Made by a program: the position numbers and the translations under genes | Source: Takakia lepidozioides | Taxonomy: Eukaryota; Plantae; Bryophyta | Assembly (NCBI GenBank): GCA_030704615.1 | Contig: CM060731.1 | Coordinates: 43,214,001-43,278,000 of the forward strand | DNA: 64,000 nucleotides | Direction of reading: 5' to 3' | Part shown: positions 40,653-62,377 of the stretch, one piece after another | Position numbering within the stretch: position 1 is the first letter of the stretch | Layout of the letters: the number at the start of each line of letters is the position of its first letter | Notes under the pieces: model-generated | Databases searched by the model: none | The model's input: only the letters and a program-made list of their open reading frames with translations | Told to the model about the DNA's origin: nothing

Positions 40653-42674
40653 TTGTTCGTGTTTGGACTCGTTGCTTCCTGTTGTATGGTAATAAACACT
40701 GTTAATACTTGGCTGAGGTCTGGGAGGCAACGTGTTGCGATGGATGCTCCCGATCTGGCCACAACGGAATCAGCCCTTGTCGAGGTCAGAGAGCCGGGTC
40801 TTCCATCACCTACAGGTAATTTGAGGGACAATCTGCGAATGCAACATGGGATGGTAAGTCTAGATGAGGGATCGCCTCTACCAGAGGCCAGTCTCTCTAC
40901 CGATTTATCTTGTGAAGATGGTATTGTTTCCCAAGAATTAGATGATATTCAGGTGACGCCCGCTGGTCTCACAAAGATAGTGCAATTTGAAGTTCCAGGG
41001 GTCACTATGTTGCCTGGCAATGGGCCTGTGGTGCCAAGTGTAGTTGGTACTGGTAATTTTGTCACTAACAAGGGCCTGTCCGCAGTTGCTGATCAGCTAG
41101 CCTCTACTCGACATATGGCCATGATGCCTGGCCTGTCTCAAGTTACAAGAGCCAGTTCTTTGGGTGGTATTTCCAGGCATGCCATCCATCCCCCTTCTTT
41201 AGACCCGATTGCTAGTGGTGTATGCAATGCAAATGTGCAAGTCCCAGTGGGAAGGGCTAATGTGAGCGGTATGCCAGCCCCGTCACATGCTCGTATCAAC
41301 GTAGGAACTGCTGCTGGTTTGCCTGTTTCTATGGTGCATGTTCCTAATCCCGCTCTTGGGGGAGGAATTGGTGTGTCTATGACTTCTGGATTGTCTGTTG
41401 GCATGAATACTGCTTGTTCTAGCTCTAGTGTAGGCGGTCAGTCAGCCCAGCAATTGGGAAGGCCACCCATTCCCACCATGAGTGGAGTGGCTCCAAACCA
41501 AGCAACCATGGTCAGTCAAGTTGTTCAGTCAAGGCCTGTGTTTCATGCACCCCGGGTGGGCGTGACAACATTACCGCCTAGCCTGCCATCTTTGTCATTT
41601 CAAGGTCCCTCTAATGTCATGAGTAACAACTATGTCCCGGTTACTAGTGGGGTCCATGCTATGAATACAACCACCAATCAGACTCAGGCTATGGCTCATT
41701 GCTGCCCGGCCCATGGATCTGCTCAGCCTGGTCACATGAATCATAGTTTGCCCTGTCACTTGCTTCCTCAGCTCACTACCCAGCCCTATCCAAAATACAC
41801 AATGGGAGAGGACTTTGATAGATATCTCCAGATGTTTGAAGTGATTGTTAATGTGAATGGAGTGCCTGAGAATTTTAAAATGGCAATTTTTAGAATGAGC
41901 GTGAAGGGACCAGTCCGTGACTTGTTGCATGCAGCTGTCATGGATGACCCCTATCTCACTTGGGCATCCCTTGTGGAATGGGCTAAAACCTTGTTCAAAC
42001 CACCTGAAAGACCCTTGGACTGCTTCACCAAATTAAACTCCAGGACTTACCAGCCAGGAGAGTCCTTGTGGAAGTATTACGTGGATCTAAAATTTGCTGC
42101 TGCAGACAATATCATTGATCTAGCAGAACGTGATCGAATGGTGAAGACCTACTTTCTCCTTGGCTTGCCCCATGGTATTCAAAATTGGGCCCAACGTCGT
42201 CATTTTGTCAATGACAAAACTATGCTAGCTGAAATTAATCTTAAGATGGCAGACTTAGCTGACAGCAAATCAATGCAAACTCATGCCAAGTTTCAAGCTC
42301 CAGTGGGCTCCGAGCTTGGCATGGCTGCAACATCTTCACTTTATGTCCCGCCTGCTATGCAATGTAAGTCAGATAATTTCACTCTTCAAGGGCTGGCCAA
42401 CACAGTGGGTAGTCTAAGTGAGTCAGTTGCCACTCAGTTCGCTGCCATGCAAGCTCATCAGCAACGATGGCAGCCTAGACAGCCACAAGCACAGACAGGT
42501 GGTAGCAACAGAGGTCGTACCCAAACAGGTCAGGCCTATGAAGGCAACCGAGCCGCATGCTACATATGTGGGTCTTCTGAACATTGGACCAAGCACTACC
42601 CTGATAGAGCAGGCCTACCAGAGCTGCTTAAAAACAAAAAGGCTGCCAGTGGTTCCAACCCTCCTTTAAACTAG
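40653..42674 (+). CDS. gag: Ty3/gypsy Gag (element 1)
   Basis: 673-aa ORF with a capsid-like region (YPKYTMGEDFDRYLQMFE...YQPGESLWKY) and a degenerate zinc knuckle CYICGSSEHWTKHY, directly upstream of pol. Confidence 0.85.
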   Translation: MFVFGLVASCCMVINTVNTWLRSGRQRVAMDAPDLATTESALVEVREPGLPSPTGNLRDNLRMQHGMVSLDEGSPLPEASLSTDLSCEDGIVSQELDDIQVTPAGLTKIVQFEVPGVTMLPGNGPVVPSVVGTGNFVTNKGLSAVADQLASTRHMAMMPGLSQVTRASSLGGISRHAIHPPSLDPIASGVCNANVQVPVGRANVSGMPAPSHARINVGTAAGLPVSMVHVPNPALGGGIGVSMTSGLSVGMNTACSSSSVGGQSAQQLGRPPIPTMSGVAPNQATMVSQVVQSRPVFHAPRVGVTTLPPSLPSLSFQGPSNVMSNNYVPVTSGVHAMNTTTNQTQAMAHCCPAHGSAQPGHMNHSLPCHLLPQLTTQPYPKYTMGEDFDRYLQMFEVIVNVNGVPENFKMAIFRMSVKGPVRDLLHAAVMDDPYLTWASLVEWAKTLFKPPERPLDCFTKLNSRTYQPGESLWKYYVDLKFAAADNIIDLAERDRMVKTYFLLGLPHGIQNWAQRRHFVNDKTMLAEINLKMADLADSKSMQTHAKFQAPVGSELGMAATSSLYVPPAMQCKSDNFTLQGLANTVGSLSESVATQFAAMQAHQQRWQPRQPQAQTGGSNRGRTQTGQAYEGNRAACYICGSSEHWTKHYPDRAGLPELLKNKKAASGSNPPLN

Positions 42675-42724
42675 ACAGACCTCTTGGGAAGGGGGCAAGA
42701 GGTCCACCAGTCACCAACCCTTCC
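42665..42724 (+). promoter_or_regulatory. -1 programmed ribosomal frameshift signal (slippery heptamer plus H-type pseudoknot)
   Basis: T TTA AAC at 42665-42671, in the gag frame just before TAG. 6-nt spacer; stem GACCTCTTG (42678-42686) with CAAGAGGTC (42696-42704); loop GGAAGGG can pair with CCCTTCC (42718-42724). pol is open in the -1 frame. Confidence 0.85.
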
Positions 42725-44715
42725 TCTCTCATTCCTTTGCAAGCTGTGTTGTCTACTTATTTCAAAGCTTTGCATTGTCCTCTAAGCAGGCAGACCTCAG
42801 GACAACAGATCAGCCCTCTTATGGCCCAATGCCATATTCACGAGTTGAGTTTCCCTTGTGTAATCGACACGGGTTGCACCATATCTGCTATGCCTCTAAA
42901 TATTGTGAGAGTTCTTGGTCTTAAGTTATGCCCTGCCTCTGGTGTTGAAGTACTAATTGCGGATGGGTCCAGATATGAGCCTCTAGGTTTGTCATTGTGC
43001 CTATCAAGATTCACAAGAAGGAGGTCGTGGTTACATGTATAGTCACTCTAGGCGATCAATTCTTGCTAGGCCTTGATTGGATGACTGGAGCTGGTGCAAC
43101 CATCAGTCTGGCTGATTACTCCCTCCGATTTAACAATGGAGAGGGCCATGAGGTCATTGTTCCATTGAAGGCTGTGAAACTTAGAGCTGGATCTGCCATA
43201 GCCAATCTATCCAGAGTTTAGGCAATGGTGAAAGAGGTACAACAGAACTCTCACTCCAGCCTCAATTGGAATGATTTTTACAAACTTCAGCCTGATCTGC
43301 AACTCTTATATCAATGGCATGTTCCTAGTGCTGATGGTAGAACAGGGATGCCTATAGCTATCCCAAAAAATTCTACTCTGATTCATGCACCCTTGAACGT
43401 CACCATCCCTGCTATGACCCAGAAAGTAATCAAGTCTGGTCTGGCTTTTTTATGCCCAACTGCTCATTTCCTGGAAGTAGAAGGTTGGCGGAGACTCACT
43501 GCTCTCAAGCATTGCTTGGTGGCTACTGGGTTATAGATAGAGGATATAGGGAGGAGGTCAAAGTGTTACTTGCTAATCCGGAGCACTTTCATGTGACCAT
43601 TAAGAAAGGGCAGGTCCTGGCTCGTATCACTGCTCTGCCCATTGCTGAAATCCAAGAAGTGCAAGTTGGCTTTGGGCTGGAGGCCATTGGCATTCAACAC
43701 GGCCCTACGGATGTTGTTGCTGCCTTTGCTGCTCTAGCACCACCACCTCTCCCTGATCTCAGTCCTGCAGGTAAGAAGGCTCTTACCAAAGTGTTGTTTG
43801 AACTTACATTAGGAAGTACCCTCTCCCCTGGCCAAAAGAAAAGAGTAGAACTGCTTGTTGCAAAAAATCTCGATATTTTCAGCTTGGGATCTACTGATCT
43901 AGGGTGTACTCCCATCCTTCAACATGACATCGTCACTGAGGGACCTCCTATTAAACAATTTGCGTACCGAGAAAGTATTAAGGAATGTGCCATCGTTCAG
44001 GAGGAAGTCCAGAAGATGCTTGATGCTGGTGTGATTAAGCCATCAATCTCCCCTTGGGCCAGTCCCATTGTCCTGGTTGGTAAGAAAGATGGCACTACTC
44101 GCTTTTGTGTTGACTTAAGGAAATTGAATGACATCACTAAGAAGGATGCCTACCCTCTACCCAAGATCAAGGAAACCTTAGATCAATTGCATGGTGCTAC
44201 CATTTTCTCCTCTCTTGACCTTGCATCTGGTTTTTGGCAAGTTCCTCTCACTGAAGCAGCCAAGGAAAAGACTTCCTTTGTGTGTCGCATGGGCAAGTAC
44301 CAATACGAAACCATGCCCTTTGGCTTATGTAATGCTACCTCTACCTTCCAACGCCTCATGGACATTGTCTTAGGTAATCTTCGCTGGGAATGTGCCTTGA
44401 TTTATGTTGATGATATCAATGTATACTCAGCCAACTTTGATGCACACTTGACTGATCTGCAACGTGTTTTCAGCAAATTACGAACTGCGGGACTTAAGGT
44501 AAAACCCAAAAAGTGTGAGCTGTTTATGCCTGAGTTATACTTTCTTGGGCATATTCTGTCCAAGGATGGTTTGCTTCCTGATCCTGCCAAGCTTGAGTCT
44601 GTTTGGGGCTTTCCTATTCCCAGGGACAAACATTGCATCAAATCCTTCCTTGGTCTGGCCTCCTATTAAAGGCGCTTCATAAAGAACTTTGCACAACTTG
44701 CCCACCTCTGACCAA
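42671..44715 (+). pseudogene. pol: Ty3/gypsy pol (element 1): protease, dUTPase-like domain and RT; truncated before RNase H and integrase
   Basis: Protease VIDTGC; dUTPase-like TIPAMTQKVIKSGL...VATG/VIDRGYREEVKVLLAN...IKKGQVLARI (~43390-43635); RT SPWASP, RFCVDLRKLN, LDLASGFWQ, MPFGL, YVDD. Confidence 0.88.
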
Positions 44716-47700
44716 GGTATTGTGCAAGGATGCCAGGTGCGATAGGCCACTGCAGCAGGCAGCCCCCACCACGTTGTAGCCCAGTGGTAATGGCCACATA
44801 CCACCTCAAGAGCGATTGTGGGTTCAATCCATGGAGTGGTGTCACAAAGTTGTGCCTTATGGACCATAATTTTCACCTCCCAAAGGAGGAGTCATATATT
44901 ATTATTAGGCCAGATCCCACACATCCATGCTACAGTGATCTATGAGCCTTGAGGCATATTACTATTCTTAACATGTTTAAAGAATTGATAAAATGGAACT
45001 CAAACTTTTATTTTAATTCTTGTGTTGAATGAGCAATACATATTCATGGTATATTTTGAAGGAATGTCTCTTAAAATATAATTCATTATTAGGATTTAAA
45101 GTTTTTCCAGCAAAAAACAATATATCCCTAATTAATCTTATTTTTCTAATTTATTTAATCAATTAATTAGGACCCGGATCCAAACCCGTGAACCCGCTAA
45201 TATTTCCCAACAACTACCCAGACCCTAACCCGAGTTCGTGTGGACAAACCCGAACCCAAACCCGCGACCCGGATTTTTTAAATTTCAAAAACTCGGATCC
45301 GGACCCGGACTTGGCTCCAAAAAACAAACCCGAACCAGGACCCGGTGGGTTCCTTAAAAAGGCAGGACCCACACAACACTGGTAGCTACAAAGAAAGTGC
45401 CACGAGTAGGCTCCATTGTCAAGTTATTTTACCACTAGTGTGAAGTTAGCTAGGAAATAGCTAGCTTTTATATATTGACATTTGGGATTGACCCAAGTGT
45501 CAATCCAGGGGCCAATACATGTTTGGGCACCTGGCGTTGTTATCTTCACGGCAGATCGCGGTGGGCTCATCTTTCTCGAGTTGAGCCTCACCGCGTCTAG
45601 CTATGGCGCCGTAGTATGGATTCCCCATGGCGTGGGGTGCACTTGGCTCGACTTAATATATGAGTGATGTTTTCATATGCGAGTGTGTGAGTTTGAGAGA
45701 GCTTGTATGCTTGTATCATTCCTTTCTTTATCACTCGAGAAAGATGAGCTCGAGTCTGTGAGTGCCAGGTTCAAGTTAGTTGTGTAGTACTTGTGTTTTC
45801 AGATCATGAAAAGCGGTTCAGCCTAGAGTGCAGGGATCCGTGCATGAGCCTATCCAAAGTGGATAGAGTGCAAAGGCGAACAGGTTGCAGGTTTGCAATG
45901 GATAGAGAGGCGAGTAGCCTATGTTGAAGAGCGGCGTTGCATAGCTCAACGCTATGGCAACCAAGTTTGGGCTTCTAGTGTGAAGCGGAGGAGATGTTGG
46001 CCACGAGTGGGCGAACTGGTGGTCGTCTTCTTCAGCTGCAGGCCGAGTTAAGGAGCTGCAGAAATGTGGGCTGCGCATGGAAGCTAACATGTTGCAGGTT
46101 GGAGATGACATGATCAGCTCCAAGTATTTCTGCCCGAAATCAGTTGTTGCGGGTAGATGAGGAGCAGCCGAATGGTGGAGCTGCAAAGAGATGCATCGCA
46201 GCCCGTTGGGAGCTTCAGCTCCAAGCTCATGAAGAGGTATGAGTGAAGAGAGGGGGCTGGTCCCTCTTGTGTGCAAATCAGTGCACTTGTGAAACATGTG
46301 CTGAGTTGGAGTTTCAATCTGAAACTCAGCAGTGTAAGGGCTCTTGGAGTAGCAAGAGCGGGGCTGGAAGGGCAGCAATGAGGCGCCCTAGAGCCAAGGG
46401 AGATGCATGAGAAGTGCAGGTGCACCAAGTTTATAAAGGTGTGTATTTTCAGATTTGTTTTTGTGAGCTTCATGAAGAAAAGGGAGCTTGTTGGGCAGCA
46501 TATAGCTTCCTTGTTGAGTTGGAGGCACTTCTAGTGGGCCGTGAGAGCTCAGGAGTGCAGGGCGACGGGGTTGATGGCTCCGCAGAAGCCATAGCTCGTC
46601 GGCAGCAGGTGCAGGAGAAAACCCCAGCTCGGGAACGCGTGGGAACGTCGGGAACGCCTCGGGAACGCCTCGGGAACTCGTTGGGAGTTCCAGGGATCGC
46701 AGGGAATAGTGGTCATGATGGGCCGTTGGGGCGGTATCACGAGATACCACGAGCCCAGGTCGTGATGGTTGACCGTGACCGTTGACCGTGACCGTTGGAA
46801 GTCGTGGTGCGGATACAACGGGTGGGCACGGTGACCAGATCGTGGGGATGGCGGGCCGTGAAGGCTCGTGGGAGTGGTACCATGGGGTATCACTGGGCAG
46901 CCCGTGGCCAACGAGTGCCTAGGGCGGGCCGTGAGGAGTAGTGGCGGTTGGAGCCACGGAAGGCCGCGAACAGTTAGAGTGAAAAAAAAAAAAAAAAAAA
47001 AAAAAATCTTTTTTCACTCGTTTCGTGGGACCTTGATGGGGAGGTTGGGCTCTGAAGAACAACGGTTTTGAGCTAGCTGATCTGGCAGAAAAGACGGAAT
47101 TGCCTCCCTGTTGCGTTTTAACAAAGGGGATTACTTCCCTGCACGTAATCTTTTCGGGTTTTCAGCCCAATTCTTAACTATGGGGAAGACCAGCCTGCAG
47201 GTAATTCCTTTGGACAGAATGTTGTTGGGGCCTATATGTACCTCTATTTGCTCCATTTTTGAACCTTCAGTGAACGGTGTGGTTTCCTGAGGTGGTTCCA
47301 TTCGGAGGAATGGCTGGTGGACGTAAGGAGGCACTGGCGGACCCTGTGGAGGCTTGCATGGGGCCTTGGAGGCCAAGTTTCATGAGCTCGTGGAGGGCGG
47401 TTTGAGGAGTGTCTACAGGATGCTCTCATGGTCATGCAAGTGAGAGAAGAGAGGAAAAAAGAGGGTGTTGGGATGAGAGCGTGTTTGGGATAGGCATTGC
47501 TTTAGCTTCTCTTCCTCATAGCTTTTCACCTTCTTTGTAGGCCGAGACCTTTCTGTAGGTGGAGGCAAGAGTCAGTCCGGGTTTGGGCTGGCTTGCAGGA
47601 GCGACACTGTGGAGTTGTTTTTGGTGTGGGGGAGTTGTTGTTTTCATTCTTGTGTTTGGATCCCCTCCACACCTGCATGCTTGATTGTGCGCCATGCTAG

Positions 47701-49523
47701 TTTTGTGTGGGCGCTTGATTTTATAGGTGGTGGACTCGGGCTTGATCGCTGATCCCACCCTAGAGCATGTTGTCGATGGTGAGGCTGGGGTGATGACCAG
47801 TCAGACCATCTTTGTTTCTCCTGTGGTGAGGTTGGAGGTGATGACCAGCCAACCATAGGAGTACCCGGGGATGCAGGTGCAGGCTATGTTAGGAACCTAG
47901 TATTCCAAACCATAAGCCGCATCAGGTTTTCTACTCGGTTACCTTGTGGAGAGGGGGTTAGAGACAGGTTCATGACCGGTTGAGTGCCAGTTTGTCAACA
48001 CGGAGGTGCCACTAGTTGTTGGGGAAAGTGCCGGTACGAGCACTAGCGATACTAGCGGGTATACGAGACGAGGTGTGCGGTATAGGCCACCTTCACCTCC
48101 TGTGTCTTCTACGGAAGGTTCTGATTCGGATTGTGAATCAGGAGGACTCACACCGGCGGTGCAAGTTGTTTCCTTACCATTGTTGTGGGACACGATGGAG
48201 GAGATGTATGGAGCCACCAAGGGGCCACGAAGGTACTCTGGGGCGGTGGGCACCATTGAGTTGGATGATTTTATCCAAGAGTTTGATAGTTGGTGTGACT
48301 TGCAGCAAATGCGCAATCCACAACTGTTTACGCATTTCATGGCATGGAAGGGGTTGTTTTAGCACCTTGAAGGGCCGCCCATAGACGATTACCATGAGTT
48401 TAGGCGGGGGCACAATGTTGAGATTGAGGAGTGGAGGATGTACTGGTCACCCGACTATGTCTCCATCACAGAGGCACTAGAGACACAAGGGCAACAGTTG
48501 CACCAGCAGCAGCAGCTACAATAGCAGCTTCCACGAGCAGTAGTGAGACTAGTGGTACAACAACTACGACGTCCACCCAAGCTATTGCTGCACCAGCACC
48601 AGTGGCGGTGCCTGCCTTCAACCCTATTGTGGAGTTCTTCGAAGAGTTGAGAAGGAACTACCAAGGGGTGAGGACAGAGAAGTTGAGGAGCTTGCAAGAG
48701 TTCCAACGGAAGCCTACTGAGAGCTTGAGGGAGGCTTTCACTCACATGAGGCGCTTGATTAATGTAACCCAAGGGGTTACGGAGGCTCAGGCAGTCCGGT
48801 TCTGGTACGGGATATTGGACAAGGAGCTGAGGAGAAGGGTGCGGGATGCAACTCTCCTACAAGCGGCCCAACCCACCTTAGCAAATGTGTTTTTGCTGGC
48901 AGAGCGGATAGAGCTCAACATTGTGGAGGAACGAGTGGTCATGGTGGGATTTGCTAAGGAGGCACCACCGGGTAGTGGTGCCCCTGGCCAGCCACTACCT
49001 CAATGTGCTCAAGGCAGCAAGGGGGCTCAGGTGAAGCCCAGGGAAGGGCAGAGAGGACCTCAGATGCAGGGGTCTCTCCCTTCATTTGTTGGCCAACAAC
49101 GGGCGGATGTGGTATGCTGGACATGTGGAGGACCCCATGTCAAGAAGGATTGCCCAGAGGGAGGCAATGGTTTGGCACTGGCATAGCCTGCACAGGTGCA
49201 GTGTGGGCATTGTGGCAGGTACGGGCATGGAGAGGCCCAGTGCTATGGTTTGCACCCTGAGTTGCACCCAGGCCAGTTCCAAGGGAACAATGGTGGCCGG
49301 GGGTGAGGTGGAGCAGCCCAGAGAGGACGAGGTGCAGGCCAAGGGCAGGCTCAACATGGCCAAGGACGCGGAGGTCAGGGTGGTGACCAAGGCATGGCCA
49401 ACCAGCTTCAGCAGCTAGAGCAGAGGCTCGCTGCCATGGCCACAGCTCAGGTGGTACCGGCTCCAAGGTTGGATGGTCCACCTCCTGCTCCTGAGGGAGG
49501 AGACTTAGGAGGCATGGGATTCA

Positions 49524-49700
49524 TGTGCGGGGCAGCACTACCACTAGTAAGGGGTGCCACTACCACTACCACTATGGGTGGGGCACCACTACCACTGGTG
49601 AGGGGTGCCACTACCACTACCACTGTGGGTGGGGCACCACTACCACTAGTGTCGGGCAGTACTACCACTACCACTATGTGCGGGGCAGGACTACCACTAG
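49524..49700 (+). repeat. Three 60-bp tandem repeats (GAxLPLVxGxTTTTT) between gag and protease
   Basis: Unit ggggcaccactaccact(a/g)gt...ggg...actaccactaccact repeated with period 60. Confidence 0.85.
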
Positions 49701-51049
49701 TGCAAGTGGAGTCAGCTGCGGCAGTGACTCGAGGAGTAGCACGAGTTCTTGAGCCACGGGGTGCGGAGGTGGAGTTGGATCCACAGCGTGGGGAGACAAG
49801 CCGTCAGGCCAGGCTTCCTCAGTCATTCACATTGGTGGAGACAGTGTTGACGCCGTCCATGGCACCTAGTTCTCGCCCGACTGTTACCGAGGCGGAGGTT
49901 ATTATGCCATTGGGGAGAGCTACACGGGCAGCACCACTACCTAGTGTTGCCAAGGCTACGGCAGCTAGTGTGCTGCTGGGGGTGGCCACAGCTGTGTGCT
50001 AGGCTCCATTGTTCTCGGCTACCATGATTGCGACGCCAGGGGTAAGACCAGCTGAGATGTTTAGGCTGGCAGTGACACTCTATGAGAGTGGGGAGGTTAC
50101 TTCATCTTCTGCGGAGATAGTGGGAGGTGTAGTGCCGGAGGGATCCTCGGATGTGAGGGTCAAGACTGCCACGGTGGCGCCATAGCAAACTGCAGCTGCC
50201 AGGTTGATGGAGCTGTCAGCTAGGCCAGCCATTGAGCGCGCCATGGTGACACCTGGAGTTGTCATGTTAGACAACCAGGATGACATTTTCTGTTTGAGTG
50301 GACCGGCAGGCAAGAGGTACCGGCCACTGCGGGTCTTGTTGGACTCAGGAGCTCAGCCATTGATGCTGGGCAGAGCTGCTATTGCAGGCTTGGGCCTCAC
50401 GGAGGCGGATATGGAGCCATGCCCTTTCCAGATACAGACATCTCTGGGAGGATCAAAGCAGGCTCGGGGCATAACACGGCATGAGTTGGCTATTTGACTA
50501 CAGCCGGATCATCCTACAGATGGCTCAGTGATGAGAGCCAAGGCCATTGTGACAGACGCGGTCTCGTACGATGTCCTTGTTGGTGGGGCAGTGTTATACC
50601 CCATGGGCTTTACCCTGGATTTTTGGGAGGAGTCAGCTTCATATAGGCCTGGATGGCAGTCAGGGGAGGGTCGGCGTGTGCAGCTCCCTGTGGCGTTCAT
50701 AGGAGGAGTTACGGTTGCCCAGCGAGGCAAGATGCCAACACTGGCAGCATTCACAGCCGCGATGACTTGGCCTGGAGAGTTGTTGGATGGCAACACTCAT
50801 TCAGAGGATGTGTCACCTCCGGGAGAGCAGGATGACATGTATGGTATGGCGGAGTTGCCTGCCATGGTTGGTCACACTCCATTGTGGGGCTCGAGCAAGG
50901 ATTTACAGCGGGTTGCTGATTGTCGTTTGCAACAAGCCTGGGTAGAGGCTTTTGTACCGTCAGAAGAGGAGGACAGTGCGGGGATTGCACCAGGTCCACC
51001 TTAGTTGTCACCATTGGACACCACACCAATCATGTGGCAGTGTCCGGAT

Positions 51050-51975
51050 GAAGGCATTTGCCTTCTGGTTTGGCGGGATCAACACCGGATTGGCTGCTGT
51101 TCTACAGGCAGGTGTACGGGTACGGCGTTACCTGTGTGTGGAGAAGGATGAGACTGCACGACGCGTCTCCCTACGCCATGTTGCTCAGTTGGTGTAGCAG
51201 TACCCTGAGTTGTTGCCGGGGCCTTGCCAGGAGATATTTCGTTGCTGGGGGCGCAGGATTTGGAGCGGGTTGGCTCCATTGATTTGGTAGTGGCAAGTTG
51301 GCCCTGCCAAGGGCATTCATCAGCCGGGCATGGCAATGGATTGTGAGACTCGAGGTCGGGTCTGTTTTGGAGATGGTGCGGGTTTTGCGCCACTTACAGC
51401 TTCATCAAGCTGTATCTCCAGCATACATCTTGGAGAATGTGCCACTGATGGGCAATTCTCGGGCCAGGGTGATGGCCAGTGTGCATCAAGTCCGGTTGTG
51501 GCTTGGGTCAGCAGTGTTGCTGGATGCAGTTGCAGTGGGGTCACGGGCTCATCGTCCACGGTTATGGTGGACTAACTTGATGCCACCCGCACTGCTTAAG
51601 CGTGCATTTGATGGGGTGCAGCGGCCAGCACACCTCGCAGTGGATAGCATTTTGGACACAAGGAGGCAGTCTCAGCATGTGAGACACGATGACCGTTCGC
51701 CTTTGGCAGTGGTCAACAAGGTGGGTCAACCACGAGCAACACTACCTACACTGCTCAGCTTCCCGGGATCGCATGCTTTCCGGGATAATGGACTTGGCCT
51801 CCTGTGGGATGCTCAGTTGCAACAATTAGTGGAGCCTAATGCCGACGAGCAAGAGCGGGCTATGGGTTTTTCCACTGGAACCACGGCGGTGCCTTCTCTT
51901 TCTGAGGCATCACGTCGTCAGGTGTTGGGGCAAGCAATGGATCTAAATTGCTTGACCTGGATTATCAGCTTGGCT
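51050..51975 (+). pseudogene. DNMT3-like C5-cytosine DNA methyltransferase domain within retrotransposon pol
   Basis: Motif I FGGI, II VEKD, III GDI, IV WPCQG (Cys codon 51305-51307), VI YILENV (51433-51441), VIII AHRPRLWWTN, IX EQERAMGF, X RRQVLGQAM, in canonical order. A few frameshifts and stops. Confidence 0.9.
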
Positions 51976-52845
51976 ATGGCTGAGCAACGTAGAGTGCGGA
52001 GTGCACTTCCCTTGATGGTCTCTCTGCCTACTAAGACGATACAGGCAGTGAGTGGGGGCGAGCCGGTGAGGACCACGGGGTGTAGACATCCATGGCACAC
52101 GTGGGAGGTGCTCAAGGCTCAGAGGGAGTTGGCAGCCAAGGCGGCTGTGATGGATGAGGTTGGGGATTCTTCTTGGGTTGAGGAGGTCTTCAAGGATGAG
52201 ATGATGGGGCAGGATGAGGCCTTGTCATTGACTGAGCAGGCAGGGAGTATTGCTCAAGAGGTTGCGGCATAGCAACCACGGGACGCGTCCTCTACCTCTA
52301 AGTCTGTTGGACTTAAGGTTGCAGTTACGAAGGGCAATTGGGAGCCTGACATTGGACCTATTGTCACTAGAGGAGAGAGACGACGTATACGGCAGTTCTT
52401 GAGGCTTATAGGAATTGCTTTGCCTCTCGTGCTACGGTGGAGGAGCATGAGAGACATGTTCAGGTTGTGCATCGACCGGGTTTGGTCAATAGGATGCGGA
52501 TGGATTGAGTCGCAATCCATGCACAAGCCAGCAAGATGACACTGGAGCTCGGTGGCATGGTGAGACAAACAAGGAGATGGTGTTGGGATGGCATGCATCT
52601 GCCTTTTGTGTATCTTGGCATCGGGAGGTCAGGTTGGACCTACAACAGGGATGACTGTAGACGGAGTGTCTGAGGACCCTGAGGCTAGTAATAAGCCAGG
52701 TGGTGCCAGAGATATACATGAGGATTCGGTTGTGTTAGACTACCTCCGCACTGGAGACACGGCAGCTAGTGTGACTGCCAAGGAGAGGGATCGGATCCTA
52801 CAATGAGCCAAGAGGTTCAAGTGGGAGGGGATACACCTGCTTCAA

Positions 52846-54048
52846 ATGTGGGAGGATGGTCGGGTGAGGATTGTGCCTCACCCAACACAACGTGCACGGT
52901 TAGTGCGGCATGCCCATGAGGAGTTGGGGCATTTTGGAGTGCAACGCACTCATAGTTTACTGCAGGGGCAGTATTGGTGGCGTGGTATGCACACAGAGGT
53001 GCAACAGTTCGTGGCTAGGTGCATGGTGTGTGACAGGGTGTGTGCTTCATTCAACGCCCCTACACCGCAGTTGCATCCTTTACCCATCATGGGATCGGGC
53101 TACAAGTGGAGTCTTGACTTTGCAGGGCCTTTGCCACTGACGATGTGTCACCACAGATACGTGTTGGTGATGGTGGAGCACTTCTCCAAGTGGATTGAGT
53201 TGGTTCCATTGCCTAACAAGGCTAGTGAGGGGGCTACGTATGCATTCTTGGATCGTGTGCTTAGCCGATTCAGTGCTTCAGCTGAGGTACTCACGGACCA
53301 AGGGAGAGAGTTCTTGGGGGAGTTTCAGGCTTTGTGTGATAAAGCCTTGATAGACCACCGTACCACTTTTCGGGATCATCTTGAGGCCGATGGCTTGGCA
53401 GAGAGAGTGGTGCAGACGGTGAAGAGGGGTTGGCGCAAGTATGACTTGCAAAAAGGACACCTAGGAGATTGGGATCTTCAGGTACCTTGGCTAGCCATGG
53501 GCTACAGGTTTTGCAAGCAAGCATCACTTGCCTCCTTCTCACCATATTTCCTTCTCTTTGGCCGAGAGCCAGATTTGCCTGCGTCTATTTGCAGGAAGGC
53601 TACAGTAGTCCTCAACCTTGATGATCCGGATGTATGGACACAAGCATGTGCCCAGCGGGCAGAGTTGTTCAAGAGAGTCATGCCTATGGCTTTTGAGAAT
53701 CTTGCTATTGCCCAACACCGAGACACATTGAGGTATGTCACTATACGTGGAGGGGGATATCAGCCAAGTGTTCGGCGTTTCTACCCTGGGGACTATGTGT
53801 ATCTGCAGCAGACATCGCCTATGACCTTGGATGTTACAGCAGGATGTATGATTCTAAGGGTCACGGAGGTGTTGCCTTCAGGAGTGTTGATTCTGGAGGG
53901 TCGAGATGGCATGGTATGGAAGGATCATGTGCGCAATTGTGCGCCATGTCACCTTCCACATGTGGATGGGAGGATAGATCCCAACCTTGCAGTGGTACCT
54001 GCAGGATTGCGTTGCATGCTATGTGGGCATGCTCGTGGTGCCGCCACT
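52846..54048 (+). CDS. Retroviral-type integrase of element 2
   Basis: HAHEELGH...CMVC; WSLDF, TDQG, GLAERVV, SPYFLLFG; ends LRCMLCGHARGAAT at the insertion point. Confidence 0.9.
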
Positions 54049-54669
54049 TGTTAGAGGGCTGCTTGGGACTTAGATGCTAAATTTTTGCGCAGACTGAGAC
54101 CAACATGAGCCTTAGGGGTGGCAGCAGCAGACTTAGGGGGGGGGGGGGGTGACACAGCCCGCCACAGCTTCGCACAGCCAATCACAGCCAGCCCGCCACA
54201 CGTTCGCACAGCCAGTCACAGCCAACATAGCCCGACATAGCCCACCACAGCTTCGCATTGCCAGTCACAGCCGACACAGCCTAACACAGCCAGTCACAGC
54301 CCGCCACAGCTTCGCACAGCCCGACACAGCCGACACAGCCAGTCATAGCCCGACACAGCTCGGCACAGCTTGACACAGCCTGTCACAGTACATAGGGAAC
54401 AGTTATCATTGGCAGGGAATGACTGTGAGGGATGACGGTTAATTAGTTAGGTGGTTAGAACAGCTTGCGGGCAGATAAGGAGAGCGGCAACGGAAAGAAG
54501 GACACTTCACGGGGGGACACTTTGGGGGGAGCACTTCTTGGTCACGAAGGAGAGGAGATCAGGCGGAGAGCAAGAACGAGAGCACGGAGAAGGAGGAGAG
54601 CTGTACATTAGATGTTTATTTCAGGCAGAACAGTAGTGATACTGTAGGGCGGATTAGAGTCACTTGACA
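54049..54669 (+). repeat. 5' LTR of gypsy element 3
   Basis: Starts TGTTA exactly where the integrase of element 2 breaks off and ends TGACA, followed by TTGG (PBS-like). Contains a CACAGC(C) tandem array at 54150-54388. Confidence 0.7.
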
Positions 54670-54890
54670 TTGGCCTAGTACCTGATAAATCGTAATCTGA
54701 TACTTATTCGATACAAGCACACTGTGTAGAGAGACATGAGTGAAGCTGTGAAATGAATGCATGATTTAACTGAAACTAAGAAGATACTGAAGCAATCTGA
54801 TGCTTCAGTATCAGATAAGGTAAATTGATAACATGAAGGTAAGAAGGAATACAAAGGGGAAGCACAACCATGATACACTAGCTGCAGGTC

Positions 54891-55586
54891 ATGACTGATT
54901 ATACTGAGCGGGCTGAGTGCTTAGAGATATCCAACTCTTCTATCTTGGAGTTTCCACCTCGGATAGCGAAGGGATGGGTGAGTAAAAGCCGCTCGACATT
55001 TGGTGACCATACTAGGGAACTGGGTCATGAACAACCAGATGTGACAGGCATCTGGTGGGATCATGGTGGTTGGAGAATTAAAGAATTTGATGTGAATCAA
55101 ATTCCCTGTGAAACTGAGAAGGAAAGACTGTCCAAACGATTCTTTCAGAGGTTCTTGGAATTGCCAGACGGTTGTAAAGAAAACTTTCTTAAAAGAGTGC
55201 ATGATGCTGACCCTGAGTGGGGTCTGGAGAAAGGGGTGATAAGGATTTATCAGGTGGCCTGTAGAGGAAGAGCACGTTGGTTACCAACACTGGTTTATGT
55301 GATAGCATTGCTATCCATTAAGCAAGTAGAGTTTGAAGGCTGGGAGGAAAGGAAGGTGAATGTTTATACTCATATGCATGAAGAGCTTGTACTGGTAAAG
55401 AATTGGATTCCAAAGGATATTCTATGGATCAAACTCACACCAAGAACAGCTTTCCAGACTTGTTTGCCATATGGTTATATGGTAACGGAGACTTCTAGTA
55501 TAGCCAAGGGTGCATTGAAGCTCGAAAGAAACCCAGGCATATACGAGAGATACTACAGAAGAGAGTTTTGGTTACTGCCACATTAA
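54891..55586 (+). CDS. Additional 231-aa ORF upstream of gag, unknown function
   Basis: Uninterrupted ATG-TAA ORF between the LTR and gag, Trp-rich with globular composition; no motif recognised. Confidence 0.55.
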   Translation: MTDYTERAECLEISNSSILEFPPRIAKGWVSKSRSTFGDHTRELGHEQPDVTGIWWDHGGWRIKEFDVNQIPCETEKERLSKRFFQRFLELPDGCKENFLKRVHDADPEWGLEKGVIRIYQVACRGRARWLPTLVYVIALLSIKQVEFEGWEERKVNVYTHMHEELVLVKNWIPKDILWIKLTPRTAFQTCLPYGYMVTETSSIAKGALKLERNPGIYERYYRREFWLLPH

Positions 55587-55606
55587 AGAAATGAAAGACA
55601 TGGGAC

Positions 55607-57553
55607 ATGAGTGATGAAAGAGAAGCTAGACTCCAGAGATATTCAGCAAAAAGAGAAAGTTATCTGAAAGCTTATTGTCCATATCTTTGGGAGAGAGGAA
55701 TAGACATAGGGGAATCATCTAGACCTCTCACACCATTAAGATCAGAGAGTACATCACCCATACCGGAAGAACTAGAGTTGGATGCCACTCCTTCTTTTTC
55801 TTTGCAAGAAAGATTAAGGGAATTGGTACGGGAAGAAGATCAATCACGAGGTGAAAGATCTGAGGTACATCCCTGGATAAAAGATTTGACAGAAATCTTT
55901 GATAAGAGTTGGCATGGAACACCAAAAGCAGGAACTCCAGTTTCTGAAACGGAAGGTGAAGAAGGAGGAGAGGATGTGGCAGAGCCAACAGAGAGTTCAG
56001 ACTCTCCAACACCATTGCAGTTGAGTTACATGAGTGAAGAAGAAACCCAAGGGCAGAACTTGGAGGATGAAAATAGAGAGAAGAAATTGGAAGAGGAAGA
56101 GAATGAAGAAGTAGACCCAACAGCTGAGGTTGAGACTACAACCAGGACATCCCAACCCGTTGGACCTGGATCAAGTGGAGCACTTGGATCACAGACCAAC
56201 GAAGGTGTCGGCTCAGGGGGATCAGGCGGGCAGCCTGGATCTGGCTCTGGGGTGACAGGGAGTGTGGGAAGTAGTGCAACTAGAGCTGGGAATACTGTGA
56301 ATATCGTGGGGCCAGTAGTAGGGATTGCTCAGGGGCCACCACTGGGTGGAAGATCCACCACAACTACAACAGGTCCTCAAGGACCAGCACCAGCAAGGGT
56401 GCCAGCATCTGTCAGTGGGCAGAGGGTAGGGCCACAGATGGCGTTATAACCAACACGGGCAAAACCACCTTTTCCAATATATTCAGGAAAGGGGATCCCG
56501 ATGTACACATTAGCCAATTTGAGCACATGTGTATAGTGAATAATGAGAATGGCGATGATGCCAAGATGAGACTGTTTCCTTGTTCCCTTATCAAGAAGGC
56601 AAGTGAATGGTATGCAAGATTCCCTGATAATCATTTCCTAACCTGGAATGGCTTGAATACAACATTCCGAAATAGGTTCAGGACAAGTAAAACTGAGGAT
56701 GAAGTATATGGAAGTTTATAACAGTTAAAGCAAAAGAAGCATGAAACTGTTTGAGGAGTATATGAAAAAAATGGAATTGATGATGAAAAAGCTGGCTACT
56801 GTACCAGCACCAGGTTTACAGAAGACTTGGTTTGTGAGTGGACTAAGACCAGAGTTGCAAAAGAAAGTGGATATGTTACCCCATAATACAGTGGAGGAGG
56901 CATTTGAAACAGCGAACAGAATTGAGCAATTGGGAATGCTCAGGAGAGAGAAAAGGGATGATGAGGACTCTGAGGATGAGTCGGATGAGGAAGAAGTGCA
57001 AGAGCTGAAAAGGAAGAGTAAGAGAAAAGAGAAGTTGAAGAGGGATAACTATGAGAAAAGACTAGAAGAAATCTTGAAGAAGTATGCCACAGAGGCTGCA
57101 ACACATTGGAGGAAGGGTGTTTGGTGTACAAAGTGCCAGAATGAAGGCCATACCACCACTGAATGCCACATGAAGGAGAAACATTGTACTATCTGTAAGA
57201 TGAATAACCATTCTACTGAGAATTGTTACTACAACAGAAGGACAGCTGCTAGAGAACCTAGGCAAGTAAGGGTGCATCAAGTGCAGCCCCAGCCAAGAAG
57301 AAACAGTGATTAGGACCACTATGGTAGGCCTGGTGGTTATAACAATGGCATGGAAGGGAGAGGTAATACAAGAGGGAATTACCAAGGAAATTCCAGAGGC
57401 AACTATCAGGGTAATCCAAGGGGGAATTACCAGCCAGGGAATCAGGATTACAGAAATAATCCTAGAGCAGACCAAGGGCGAGGACCCAATGGTGAAGAAC
57501 TGTGTTACTATTGTAATCAGCCAGGACATTGCAAGGCAGCCTGTCCATTCTAG
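55607..57553 (+). pseudogene. gag: Gag of element 3 (frameshifted)
   Basis: KMRLFPCSL..KASEWY..., WFVSGLRPELQ, and knuckles CTKCQNEGHTTTEC, CTICKMNNHSTENC and CYYCNQPGHCKAAC. Confidence 0.85.
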
Positions 57554-57571
57554 ATCAGACACTAGAATGAG

Positions 57572-60500
57572 ATGAGAGCTCCTGTGAATGAGGGCCCAGT
57601 GGTGGCAGCTCACATGGTTAGGCCATGTGTTATACCAGAAGTAAGTACAATGATAGTAACGAGAAGCAAAGCCAAACTAATACCTCCAGTAGAAGAGGAA
57701 GATGATGATAATGAAGATGGCAGTGATGTGCATGAAGATGATAAGGCTTGGAGAGATGAGAAGGAACTGCACAAGGAAGTGGCAGATACCATAAGGGAAA
57801 TGCAGAAGAGTACCTATATTCCTATGGCAGATTCCTCTGATTCTGAAAGAGAAGAAGAAGTGAGTGAGGATGAAAGGAAGAAAGAAGCTGCAGACATGCA
57901 GAGTAATGAAGGGACTTTGGCTGAAGTAATATGCCAGACCAAAGCTGAGATTACCATTGGACAGCTATTGGCTGTGGCACCTTATTGTAGACACAGGCTA
58001 TATCAAGCAATCAATCGAATTGCCCATGTGACAGGAAACACAGACCTGAACAGCAAGGTGACCAGTTATAATGTGAAGCCGGAAGGGCGAGAAACAGTCA
58101 TGGACTTTGATGATTCTATGCCAGTAATCCAATTGAGAATTGGAAGCACAGAACTAACTGATGTACTGATAGATGGAGGCTCTGGAGTGAATATCATGAC
58201 ATACCAATTAAGGCAGAAGCTTGGTCTAAGTAACATGAAACCAGCCCCATTTACAGTAACAATGGCAGATCAAAGAAGTGTACAGCCATTGGGATTGATA
58301 AGAGGAGTTAAGATACAGATTCAAAAGATGATCTTTATGATCACAGCAACTGTGTTGAAAATGGATGAAGTTATGGAAGCTTACTCCTTATTGTTGGGAC
58401 GTCCGTGGCTGAAACAGGCCAGGGTATTCCATGACTGGAATCCCAGTTACTAACTGTGCATAAGGGGATGCACAAGATACAAATTACCACTAAGAAATCT
58501 AGTAGATTACATGCTACGAGAAGACCTCGAGGGGTCAGGGAATATGACGGGAGGGGAGGACTGGATGAGGAGCAGGAAGCTACCATGTTTGCTGCACACC
58601 CAGAGTGGGAACAGGTTGCAGAGATGCAGCTGGAAGGCCTAAGTTGTTTAAAAGGTATCTGTTGTGGTGTAGTGACAGCAACACCAATTGAAGGAGAAAT
58701 AAGCAGTTACCCACCACATTTTTATGAAGAAAGAGAAGGAGAAATGGAAATCCTAGAGGAACCAGCCACTGTGAGTTTACAGGATGAAGTGGTGACTAGT
58801 TGGACAATCACAGCTGATGAGCAGTTGAGAGAAGTGTATGTGGGAACTGAAGAGGAACCGAGGATGGTGAAGGTAGGGGCTGATTTGGAGCCAGAATTGA
58901 GGAAGCTAAGAGTTTGTTCATCAAATACAAAGATGTATTTGCTTGGAGCTACGAGGATCTAAAAGGGATACCACCTGAGATCTGTCAGCATAAGATTGAA
59001 CTGGAACCAGGGTCAGTACCAATCAAATAGGCAAGGTACAGAATGAATCCCAACTATGCACAAAAGGTTGGAGAAGAGATCAAGAAGATGGCTGAGGCTA
59101 AGTTTATATACCCGATAGAGTATACAACTTGGTTGTCACCCATTGTGATAGTTCCCAAGAAGAATGGTAAACTGAGAGTTTGTGTGAACTATAAGAAATT
59201 GAATGCTTGCACGAAGAAAGATCCTTTTCCTTTGCCATTCACAGAAGCGGTATTGGACACTGTGGCAGGCCATGAGATGTACTCATTCATGGATGGCTTC
59301 AGTGGTTATAATCAAGTGCAAGTGGCAGAAGAAGACCAGGGAAAGACGGCTTTCATCACAGACTGGGGTGCTTATGCATACAAAGTCATGCCTTTTGGAC
59401 TTTGTAATGCACTAGCAACCTTTCAGAGAGTGATAAGTGAATCTTTCATGAGTATCTGGATGATTTCATGCAGGTGTTCTTGGATGATTTCAGTGTGTAC
59501 AGCTCTAAGAATGAGCACTTGCATAAATTGGAGTTATGTTTGGCCAGATGCAGAATGAGAGGTCTGGGCCTGAATCCAGAGAAGTGTACTTTCTGTGTGA
59601 ACTCAGGGGTGCTTCTGGGACACATTGTGGATCCCAGGAAGACAGAGGCCATTAAAGCCTCACCACCACCAGTAAATGTTAAGAGTCTAAGGAGATTCCT
59701 TGGACAAACCAGTTATTACAGAAGATTTGTCAAAAGGTATGCACAGATAGCAGCACCATTGAGCAAGCTTCTGAAGAAAGATGCAGTGTTTGCATGGACA
59801 GCTGAATGTCAACAGGCTTTTGAGGAACTTACATTGTCAGTAACAACTACACCTGTGCTGATTAACCCTCACTGGCATGTAGTATTTCATGTTCACTGTG
59901 ATGCCTCAGGAGAAGCGTTGGGAGCGGTGTTAGCCCAAAATGTTACAGGAAATATAGATTCACCTGTGTACTATGCTAGCAGGTTGATGAACAGTGCTGA
60001 AAGGAACTATAGCACAATTGAAAGAGAAGCACTCGCAATGATTAATGTAGTCAAGAAATTCAGGCATTACCTATTGGGAAGAAAGTTTATGTTTTATGTG
60101 GATCACCGGGCTCTGATATATCTGGTGAACAAACCTTTGATAAGTGGAAGGACAGCGAGGTGGTTAATAATCTTGCACGAGTTTGAGTTCGAAGTTGTTT
60201 ACAAGCCTGGCCGTTTGCATCTTGTGGTAGATCATTTGTCACGCCTAACAACAGGAGAGCCCGCCACAGGAGTAGACGACCAATTACCTGATGCGAGTTT
60301 ATTTGCAATGGAGGTGCAAGGAAGTGCAGATGAATGGTTAGATTGGCAGTGGCCAATCAGATACTACCTTACTCATGGTCAGTGCCCACCTAGTTATGGT
60401 AAGGAGCAGAGGAAGAGAATCGCTATCAAGGCTTTACCTTATACTATGGTAGGGGCAGAATGTATAAGCTAGGACCTGATGGAGTACTTAAACGATGCTT

Positions 60501-61570
60501 GTACCACCATGAAGTAAATAAAGTTTTGGAGGAAGTTCATAAAGGAGTGGCTGGAGGTCATTTGGAGAAGAGACTACCAGTAGGAAGATACTACTTGCAG
60601 GTTACTGGTGGCCAACTTTGTTCAAAGATGTACACAAGTATTGTCAGAGTTGTGATGAATGTCAGAGGCTAGGACATTTGCAGAGATCTGGGAAGATGGC
60701 TTTGCATCCTACGATGCCTACTGAACCATTTCAGAAATGGGGACTAGACTTGTTGGACCAATTAACCCACCGGCCAAGAATACACAGAACAAGTACATAA
60801 TTACAACCACTGATTATACTACGAAGTGGGTGGAAGCTAAAGCTTTGAGGACAACACAGCCAAGTCCACAACAAGGTTCCTGTATGAGAACATACTTACA
60901 CGATTTGGCTGTCCTGGATTTGTTAGTGACAGGGAAGTCACTTCATTAATGAGACCATTGAATTATTGACTAAAGAGTTCATGATTGTGCATAGGAAGAG
61001 TACAACGTATTACCCACAAGGTAATGGGCAGGCAGAGGCTACCAACAAAATACTATGTACTATCTTGGCTAAGATAGTCAATGCAAACAGAACGGATTGG
61101 GATACAAAGCTGCTGACAGCTTTGTGGTCATACAGGACTTCATATAAGTCACCACTAAGTATACACCATTCCAATTAGTTTATGGTATGGAAGCTTTACT
61201 TCCAGTGGAATTCTTGTTACCTACCATGAGAACGGAATGGGGAAAGAGAATGGAATTGGAAGATTCAATTAAGGTCAGGAAACATGAATTATACCATGTG
61301 GAAGAAGTACGTGCTGATGTAGCTGATAACATGACCAAAATTCAGATGAAGAGGAAGGAACAGTTTGATGAAAGCAAGTTAAAGACTTTTAAGACGGGAG
61401 ATTTGGTTTTCTAGTTGCAGAAGAAGGGGAAAATTAAAGCTTCTAAGCTTAAATCACCATGGAAGGGACCTTATGTCATACAGAAGATGTATGATAACAA
61501 CACAGCCATGTTACAAACCATTAACAAGGAGATGCTGGGAAGAGTCAATGCCAATAAGTTGAAGGGGTAC
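57572..61570 (+). pseudogene. pol: Pol of element 3 (PR-RT-RNase H-IN), many single-base frameshifts
   Basis: LIDGGSG; FMDGFSGYNQ, MPFGL, FLDD; CDAS...YYASR...EREAL; H..VAGGH, CDEC, YYPQGNGQAE, WKGPY. Confidence 0.92.
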
Positions 61571-61690
61571 AGTGGAATCCATGACAAACCATTGCAGCAC
61601 GATTTGCATGTTGAAACGCAGAAGCAGTCACGGGTTGCGCCAGTGATACCAACAGAGTATGAAGCACTTATCGCTAAGCCGAGTGTATAT

Positions 61691-61860
61691 GATCACAGCC
61701 CATCACAGTGTGACACAGCCTATCACAGCCCATCACAGTGGGACACAGCCTATCACAGCCCATCACAACGTGGCACAACCTATCACAGCTTACCACAGTG
61801 CCACACAGCCTATCACAGCGTACCACAGTATGACACAGCCTGTCACAGCTCAACACAGCC
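61691..61860 (+). repeat. 30-bp tandem repeat built from 10-bp NNNCACAGCC-type subunits
   Basis: tatcacagcccatcacagtgtgacacagcc-like unit, about 5.5 copies. Confidence 0.85.
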
Positions 61861-62377
61861 TACCGGGGTTACACAGTCCATAGGACCAGTGACAGGTGGA
61901 CGTGGGTTAACATCCGGTGAGTGGCCGGCGGAAAAGTGGACGAAGGCAGGTTTAGAAATGGACACGTGGACGCCAGGGCGAGACACACAGCCAGTCATGA
62001 ATTGCAAGAACGGGTGTCATCAAGAAAGAAGACAAAATTGGCCGTCAAAGTACCTACCCGGTACAGTAACTAATTGTGGGCCCATTAATGCATTCAGTGC
62101 CAGGGTAACGGAACCCTTTTCGAGTTCAGAAAAAAGAAACTAATGCCACATGTGCTATCCTAGTGGACAGTCCAGGGGGGAAAATCCACGGAAGGGAATT
62201 AAATTACAAAACCAATCACAGAGCCAACAGCCAATCATGAGCCAGAATTACCTGCACAGGGTATTTTCCAAGAAGCAAAATCAAGAATTTAGAGGGATTC
62301 TGAGCGCAAGAGTCGGCGTCGTTCCAAGTAACGGGCGTCTCGACGGGAGAGACAATCAAAGCTATAGCTTTGAAGCT

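Follow-up and report, generated by a model that had tools for sequence, protein, structure and literature searches.

Among the retrotransposon-borne cytosine methyltransferases described so far, the closest to the element analyzed here is KnitGypsy-Dnmt3 of Klebsormidium nitens, in which the methyltransferase (DNMT) was placed in the same open reading frame (ORF) as reverse transcriptase (RT), according to the accessible text of PMC5890265. That text also describes SymbioDIRS-Dnmt3, which methylates CG in yeast, and SymbioLINE-Dnmt. Together with the EpiLTRs (bioRxiv 10.64898/2026.05.21.726589, accessible part), these are likewise retrotransposon-borne cytosine methyltransferases, but they differ in retroelement class or DNMT lineage (the EpiLTR enzymes are sister to DNMT4) and in the position of the enzyme within the polyprotein. 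Since 2018, it has been a question why retrotransposons carry such enzymes, which so far were known from algae that are difficult to manipulate. Here, we analyze a 64,000-nucleotide (nt) stretch of the genome of Takakia lepidozioides (Bryophyta; GenBank assembly GCA_030704615.1, contig CM060731.1, forward strand, positions 43,214,001 to 43,278,000), referred to as the window, which holds a decayed Ty3/gypsy-type copy with a DNMT3-like domain at window positions 45398–54048. Gypsy-borne DNMT3 as a kind is known already from Klebsormidium. What is new, as read from the sequences of the window copy and its relatives, is that in this clade the DNMT ends ORF1 and is followed by one in-frame UAG with a conserved CAR-YY(A) context.

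The clade can be regarded as a variant of the KnitGypsy-Dnmt3 type because the frame that joins DNMT to RT is split by this conserved stop. Both have the gypsy domain set, an intronless and unpermuted DNMT3-like domain under purifying selection, and DIRS-like A-coding-B-A-B repeats (PMC5890265, accessible text). The K. nitens protein KFL_013780020 has the order zinc knuckle-protease-DNMT and is 41% identical to a window piece (E = 2e-35), and the window-clade and K. nitens DNMTs fall on separate branches of an unrooted tree that contains no host DNMT3 row. Unlike KnitGypsy-Dnmt3, the window clade is found in land plants at very high copy number and has the conserved in-frame UAG-CAR-YY between DNMT and RT, which a second subfamily of relatives (for example, L045) lacks. 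Six Klebsormidium-type proteins (P0236, P0245, P0347, P0349, P0350 and P0351) all end 12–13 residues past the DNMT; judged from where these proteins end, ORF1 may finish with the DNMT in this group too, which would differ from the published arrangement in the same ORF as RT. In the accessible text of PMC5890265, the terms "readthrough", "read-through", "PHD" and "Physcomitrella" have 0 occurrences. Later papers speak of "streptophytes" without naming land plants in their accessible parts, and their supplements may list bryophytes (PMC12344493; bioRxiv 10.64898/2026.05.21.726589). In literature that covers subscription journals thinly and includes several papers in part (among them 10.1101/363937 and PMC3441728), we found nothing on such elements in bryophytes or on the stop.

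The stop itself most resembles Type I readthrough in tobamoviruses and benyviruses, where UAG and CAR-YYA lie between in-frame ORFs and give an abundant upstream product and a rare extended one (PMC3542737, PMC2754532, PMC2194720 and PMC3441728, all in their accessible parts); in the window clade, this ratio of products is predicted from sequence. In the accessible text of three of these papers, UAG-CAR-YYA by itself drives readthrough in plant viruses (PMC3542737, PMC2754532, PMC2194720), and the Gag:Pol ratio that retroelements require is about 20 (PMC2194720). The same four sources, again in part, report in-frame stops between pol and env in SIRE1 and between gag and pol in MuLV and Tca2 (PMC3542737, PMC2754532, PMC2194720, PMC3441728). 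In contrast to the viral, SIRE1, MuLV and Tca2 stops, that of the window clade sits past the protease and an enzyme domain, ahead of RT.

Relatives were drawn from a metagenome scan, in which 309 of 597 stretches encoded a relative and 80 loci were kept, and from protein and genome databases; counts of the stop cover the window copy and the metagenome loci. Two relatives that share 72% DNA identity, L057 and L161, keep the whole arrangement open. In L057, an ORF1 of 1369 aa (gag-protease-DNMT) and an ORF2 of 1047 aa (RT-RNaseH-integrase-PHD) lie in one frame with a single TAG between them, and in L161 a single TAG likewise separates a contig-limited ORF1 of 1162 aa from a 1047-aa ORF2 in the same frame. 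In the window copy, the stop is at 52270–52272, 98 codons past the DNMT domain. It is followed by CAA CCA in the window, CAG TTA in L057 and L050, CAA TCA in L161 and CAA CTA in L051, each a full fit to UAG then CAR-YYA with coding frame on both sides. Because all four YYA codons occur (encoding Pro, Leu, Ser and Leu), bases rather than residues are kept.

In the Sphagnum-like subfamily (that nearest the named Sphagnum models, labelled by eye; 26 of its 36 loci are long enough to align, with three near-identical pairs), the stop falls at one codon in all 26 aligned loci (20 TAG, 6 TAA) and is always followed by CAA, whereas the next commonest stop position is shared by only 7 of the 26. Across the 80 loci, a stop-CAR-YY lies 200–365 nt past the DNMT in 38 of 39 testable loci of the clade versus 1 of 30 in the second subfamily; L050, L051 and L057 were assigned to the clade after the stop had been seen and the DNMT tree agrees for L051 and L057. 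After stops due to decay, CAR-YY follows in only 4 of 171 cases. Database proteins tell a similar story: the gag-protease-DNMT proteins P0330–P0340 and P0342–P0345 end 90–149 residues past the DNMT, and the linker at the stop is missing from the six gene models examined, from Marchantia and Sphagnum, that continue into RT or RNase H. Many bryophyte gene models named "DNA (cytosine-5)-methyltransferase" are to be read as transposon ORF1s, and models that fuse DNMT to RT as skipping the stop region. From its position and context, the stop is likely read through at a low rate.

Two trees group the loci and proteins that have the stop. In a quick, unrooted DNMT tree without a host DNMT3 row, from which 16 of 80 rows were dropped (6 long rows and 10 of the 22 with DNMT after RNase H), 25 rows ending after the domain are set apart, together with the window copy, by a branch with SH-aLRT support of 98; for protein rows, the stop was inferred from where the protein ends. 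When all 80 rows are kept, two long rows intrude into the stop clade. Only two rows could have served as outgroup in an RT-RNaseH tree, which recovers this clade with support of 99 plus one odd row, a second gypsy RT of locus L039 that nests inside the stop clade on a long branch. A sequence-only reading of the window had described the DNMT as embedded in pol and had missed the stop at 52270–52272. The DNMT does share a frame with RT in open relatives, which answers the concern that it might never be in frame with pol, but it ends the gag-protease ORF ahead of the conserved stop.

Several lines of evidence indicate that the domain is DNMT3-like and maintained by selection. The largest open piece of the window DNMT (51370–51999) had 4717 candidate proteins, of which 50 matched at E ≤ 0.001 (lowest E = 9.6e-92), the best named matches being from Calypogeia fissa (74% identity), Marchantia (56–71%, query cover at least 80%) and Sphagnum. 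For P0005, a relative, all 29 PDB sequence matches are DNMT3A, DNMT3B or DNMT3C and none is DNMT2, and its predicted structure (mean predicted local confidence, pLDDT, of 73.7) has DNMT3A as its best fold match (Foldseek E = 8e-18, TM 0.76 over the target, 21% identity), with pLDDT <50 at residues 314–350, between motifs VIII and IX. The family enzyme thus shares motif order and fold with the catalytic domains of mammalian DNMT3A, 3B and 3C (PDB 8tdr, 2qrv, 6u8p) but is about 40 residues longer, with insertions past motif II and in the recognition region, lacks PWWP and ADD domains, and is fused to Gag-protease. Across 20 aligned relatives, the glutamate of motif VI and the RxR arginines are invariant, and the motif IV cysteine is present in at least 90%. 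The ratio of nonsynonymous to synonymous substitution rates (dN/dS) in the DNMT domain is 0.07 between L057 and L161 and 0.12 between L057 and L050; for the window and L008 it is about 0.05, with dS near saturation. As controls in the L057/L161 pair, RT gives 0.04 and integrase 0.01, the latter with dS saturated. By these ratios, the domain is under purifying selection in the open relatives, and in open copies the enzyme is likely active. The earlier description of it as DNMT3-like, unpermuted and intronless is borne out by motif order and by the PDB and fold matches. Its proposed Pfam check succeeded for relatives, with PF00145 above the cut-off in 15 of 19 database relatives scanned, but not for the window, where the best piece (51224–51343; E = 2e-4) falls just short of the 22-bit cut-off with 21.3 bits and two further pieces, including the largest, have no Pfam match.

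A search of IMG/VR for a donor of the DNMT revealed no relative of the window piece and, with the family alignment, only distant C5 methyltransferases at 25–31% identity, so no close viral donor was seen there. Searching GTDB yielded one true relative, L161, and four weak bacterial matches among 33 stretches. The open element L161 (positions 1–9285) is filed as a contig of a cyanobacterial metagenome-assembled genome, likely by eukaryotic contamination.

The domain arrangement is a family-wide feature. Contigs matching window positions 46000–55000 at ≥80% numbered 74,938, 31,508, 20,736 and 1,639 in four sequencing runs, three of one sample and one of another study; one sample may be the window's own source. 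Methyltransferase bins were as deep as integrase bins in 4 of 4 runs, a depth that is not a copy number. Among the 80 kept loci, the protease lies upstream of the DNMT in 59 of the 66 with enough upstream DNA, RT lies downstream in 57 of 61, and RNase H is upstream in none. The order protease-RT-RNaseH-integrase holds in L057 and L161, where Pfam scans of both ORFs detected rve, and the window remnants follow the same order; integrase terminates in a PHD finger in L057, in L161 and in many other relatives. In a search of 1.84 billion representatives, which gave 2363 matches at E ≤ 0.001, the best 150 of the 2363 were examined. Among the matches listed, protease-DNMT order recurs in Closterium and Klebsormidium proteins, and a second layout, RT-RNaseH-DNMT-integrase-PHD, occurs in the chlorophyte Hariotina reticulata (P0346) and about 50 other proteins. 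The proteins with this second layout form their own branch in both the DNMT and RT trees, and it may have arisen in green algae, either because the domain moved or because it was captured a second time. DNMT and RT share one open frame without a stop in the second moss-metagenome subfamily (L045) and in P0187. Taken together, the results support the view that the DNMT is a fixed part of a gypsy-type lineage persisting in land plants (Marchantia, Calypogeia, Sphagnum), as the sequence-only reading had proposed; the dN/dS test that it called for and the many copies and relatives agree with this.

Further domain combinations were seen among the relatives. In the copia polyprotein P0358, a related DNMT-like domain separates the zinc knuckle from the protease region, and P0199 and P0207 have a PTM/DIR17-like Tudor domain near the C-terminus, in P0199 after the PHD finger. 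In L061, the element region occurs twice in tandem on one contig (151–4222 and 6810–10931), with 82% identity between the two.

On balance, we favor a model in which a conserved UAG closes a gag-protease-DNMT ORF1 and is rarely read through, so that the DNMT is packaged at a capsid-like number and likely methylates new complementary DNA (cDNA) before integration. Most ribosomes would stop past the DNMT and release a Gag-protease-DNMT product, while the few that read through the UAG would add RT, RNase H, integrase and PHD. With the DNMT on the Gag side, many copies would be packaged per particle, where the protease would free the enzyme and cDNA would be the first DNA that it encountered; the cytosines of the cDNA would then be methylated before integration. 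That cDNA is the substrate is somewhat the more probable proposition. As to purpose, one guess is that new copies arrive pre-methylated and are protected or dampened. The arrangement holds a signal about dosage: the enzyme is on the abundant (Gag) side of the recoding site and not on the rare RT side. The presence of the family in the model liverwort Marchantia and in mosses, with naturally open relatives, makes the question of why retrotransposons carry such enzymes testable.

Nonetheless, a number of results weigh against this model. The Sphagnum-like context, CAA CCC, fits five of the six consensus bases and is off at the last, and in 24 of the 26 loci of that subfamily an in-frame ATG lies three codons past the stop. 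There is no comparable stop in the second moss-metagenome subfamily (1 of 30) or in several other relatives, which indicates that Gag-level dosage is not required by all DNMT-bearing elements. No conserved RNA structure or stimulatory hairpin 3' of the stop was shared among six folds (z −0.7 to −2.7). Decayed Sphagnum-like copies have DNMT dN/dS of 0.45–0.77 and integrase dN/dS of 0.80, as expected after death, and lend no support. Depletion of CpG or CHG as a mark of self-methylation was not found in the element, whose CpG observed/expected ratio (0.45) is not lower than those of DNMT-less gypsy neighbors (0.30 and 0.20). Finally, the Klebsormidium retrotransposon DNMT was inactive in yeast, a result that its authors call inconclusive (PMC5890265, accessible text).

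Some of these observations favor other explanations. The same layout could serve an element in which RT-integrase arises by splicing, by reinitiation or from a promoter inside the element, with the DNMT still at Gag level, a possibility that we consider unlikely. Candida Tca2 combines an in-frame gag-pol stop with a promoter at the junction (PMC2194720, accessible text), TAG and CAG are possible splice acceptors, and besides the nearby ATG of the Sphagnum-like loci there is one at codon 5 in L050. However, the first in-frame ATG lies far on in others (codon 117 in L057 and L161, codon 59 in the window) though the preceding codons are conserved as protein: codons 1–116 past the stop have a dN/dS of 0.07 and no in-frame ATG in L057 or L161, which argues against reinitiation or a Tca2-type internal promoter. 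In addition, the 30 nt upstream of the stop hold only 6–8 T (window, L057, L050 and L051), and a spliced RNA or internal start leaves CAR-YYA across four YYA codons unexplained. In the Sphagnum-like loci (L001–L043), the last A of CAR-YYA is lost alongside the ATG just past the stop; by its sequence, this subfamily is possibly shifting towards reinitiation. That the domain is instead a chance retrocopy of a host DNMT3 in this one copy was suggested by the decay of the window copy and the lack of introns, but this reading is refuted by the many copies and relatives that share the domain, which is in the same position in 57–59 of about 60–66 testable loci and in liverwort, moss, Closterium and Klebsormidium proteins; the DNMT and RT-RNaseH trees also give the same grouping, and the domain is under purifying selection.

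Other alternatives accept Gag-level dosage and change the target or the activity. An active DNMT could act on host chromatin (the element's own repeats, its insertion site or competing elements), with the PHD finger reading histone marks and with the pre-integration complex or free Gag-DNMT as carrier. The PHD finger that ends integrase in L057, L161 and many relatives, a dosage high enough to permit action in trans, and the absence of element-specific CpG depletion all speak for this idea, which is still rather doubtful. Being fused to Gag and protease suggests, as in retroelements generally, that the DNMT works in the particle, and it has no targeting domain of its own. Moreover, the Klebsormidium methylome is ordinary for plants despite such elements (PMC5890265, accessible text). 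It is less probable again that the DNMT is kept as a nucleic-acid-binding or RNA-methylating component of the particle rather than for methylating DNA. Structural parts reach Gag-level dosage more typically than catalytic ones do, the Klebsormidium homolog was inactive in yeast (PMC5890265, accessible text), and the motif VIII–IX region is modelled at low confidence (pLDDT <50, P0005 314–350), but residues for S-adenosylmethionine binding and catalysis are kept across relatives only about 35–50% identical, and the nearest structures are the DNA enzymes DNMT3A/B/C, with 0 of 29 matches to DNMT2.

The copy in the window retains the following features, from left to right.

45398–45733, + strand: likely 5' terminal repeat "A" (336 nt), with a TG start and a T-rich run and CA at its end, as in the A repeats of relatives
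45565–45581, + strand: 17-nt stretch inside A, complementary to 45733–45749; likely the RNA 5' end for self-priming
45733–45749, + strand: likely primer-binding site, matched by the complement of the A repeat of the element itself and not by a tRNA
48195–49450, + strand: gag, capsid-like region with zinc knuckles at 49115 and 49202; stops and one frameshift
50330–50670, + strand: aspartic protease, LDSGAQ at 50339, single stop at 50495
51050–51975, + strand: DNMT3-like C5 cytosine methyltransferase, motifs I–X unpermuted, in four frame segments with stops
52270–52278, + strand: conserved in-frame amber stop with CAR-YYA context (TAG CAA CCA); likely readthrough site
52273–52424, + strand: post-stop linker in the frame of the DNMT tail, resembling the start of L057 ORF2; frameshift near 52400
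52425–52610, + strand: RT scraps, with the last part of RNase H
52711–54048, + strand: integrase (HHCC, DDE core, GPY/F-type motif) and the N-terminal half of a PHD finger; reading frame open from 52807
54049–54997, + strand: foreign DNA, consisting of about 100 nt with a G run at the end, an 850-nt long terminal repeat (LTR) of another gypsy family and, next to it, a TGG primer site

This copy is dead: it has stops and frameshifts, has lost much of RT and RNase H, and is cut at its 3' end at 54048. The sequence-only reading had begun the element at 50330, about 5 kb to the right of its likely start. The C5 methyltransferase motifs that it listed between the protease and an RT remnant are all present in the order given: I (FGGI) at 51069, II (VEKD) at 51138, IV (WPCQG, with the catalytic Cys) at 51299, VI (LENV) at 51430, VIII (AHRPRLWWTN) at 51547, IX (ERAMGF) at 51853 and X (RRQVLGQAMD) at 51913. 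The set is not intact, being spread over four segments by three frameshifts (near 51067, 51215 and 51368) and two stops (51195 and 51344), and the catalytic C, E and RxR residues are all retained. As for the RT remnant, remains are indeed present (52407–52481), but they amount to two scraps of 6–7 residues each (52407–52424 and 52437–52457), with YxDD and most of RNase H gone. Relative to L057, two deletions removed about 190 RT codons, including YxDD, and about 225 RT/RNase H codons, a loss of about 1.25 kb; the YxDD and RNase H sequence missing from the window is present in other copies, in loose ends that join at 52429 and 52459.

Other parts of the copy are recognizable to varying degrees. 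The gag pieces are 75% and 53% identical to Marchantia P0006. The linker matches the start of L057 ORF2 weakly (28% over 39 aa; 55% over 11 aa). The integrase region is 65% identical to L057 ORF2, with Pfam matches to rve (E = 8e-12) and H2C2 (E = 7e-16), HHCC at 52915–53031, the D/D/E residues at 53113, 53290 and 53395, the GPY/F-type motif at 53779–53799 and the half PHD finger at 54013. The foreign DNA at 54049–54997 sits where the rest of the PHD finger and the B-A-B repeats would be expected, and loose ends of other copies occur at 54080.

The ends of the element also depart from the usual LTR plan. Complete direct LTRs at both ends are not the pattern; relatives of both subfamilies have the permuted A...B-A-B form (7 loci in full, representing 6 insertions), starting with TGTCATG and ending with CA. 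DIRS-like A-B-A-B repeats occur in the clade relatives L035 and L037/L039 and in the second subfamily, and the window keeps only its likely A. A nucleotide match between the window ends and those of relatives was sought and none found; the boundary of the window A was deduced from its location and from how its ends look, with A repeats of 281–339 nt in relatives, and the 5' end is placed near 45398 because of the position of the 17-nt pair 45565–45581/45733–45749. In 6 of 7 loci, a stretch of 10–16 nt near position 165 of A (about 164–169) pairs with bases just past A, one of the six pairing over just 10 nt with a mismatch. Having a primer site that pairs with its own 5' repeat, the family resembles the Tf1/sushi self-priming Ty3/gypsy elements. 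Compared with Tf1, it has split A...B-A-B ends, an internal CA-NN-TG junction, and DNMT and PHD instead of the Tf1 domains.

Target duplications of 4 bp flank 4 of 6 independent insertions of relatives, with one mismatch in a fifth and no duplication in the sixth. In 14 of the 80 loci and in L161, B and A meet at the inner junction in a near-palindrome, CA-NN-TG, with a G-rich tract further upstream, before the first B. This junction would be what a DDE integrase leaves on cutting a two-repeat cDNA circle at its att-att junction. A more extended proposal, which we put forward tentatively, is that a bryophyte-wide clade moved its recoding site behind the DNMT, giving capsid-level enzyme and pre-methylated cDNA that is integrated via the internal att-att junction. 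If true, de novo cytosine methylation in host genomes with very many copies, including that of Marchantia, would have a source in these elements that has been overlooked.

Two other affiliations were considered for an element with such repeats. DIRS/PAT/Ngaro membership is ruled out by the rve integrase and by the absence of a tyrosine recombinase, the hallmark of that group, from the Pfam results for ORF1 and ORF2 of L057 and L161. Troyka, considered because of the split repeats, is ruled out by the TG...CA ends and 4-bp duplications; Troyka elements have CG...CG termini and a 3-bp target duplication and are found only in animals (PMC12440569, accessible text).

Elsewhere in the window, two other gypsy-type remnants without a methyltransferase lie at 40635–44669 and 54150–62000, the latter with a 10-nt tandem repeat both in its 850-nt LTR and at 61662–61890. 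A degenerate cluster of PPR repeats in both orientations, with frameshifts, occupies 10800–21900, and one of its pieces ends in what we take to be an E/DYW-type C-terminal sequence. Open reading frames on the + strand at 36658–39012 end in a SWIM-like zinc finger and perhaps belong to a MULE-type transposase. The last exon of a cytochrome P450 gene, the one gene by which the host was judged likely to be a moss, lies at 25317–25982 on the − strand, its best named matches (among the best 120 of 1377) being Ceratodon and Sphagnum at 64%, with named seed plants at 57% or below.

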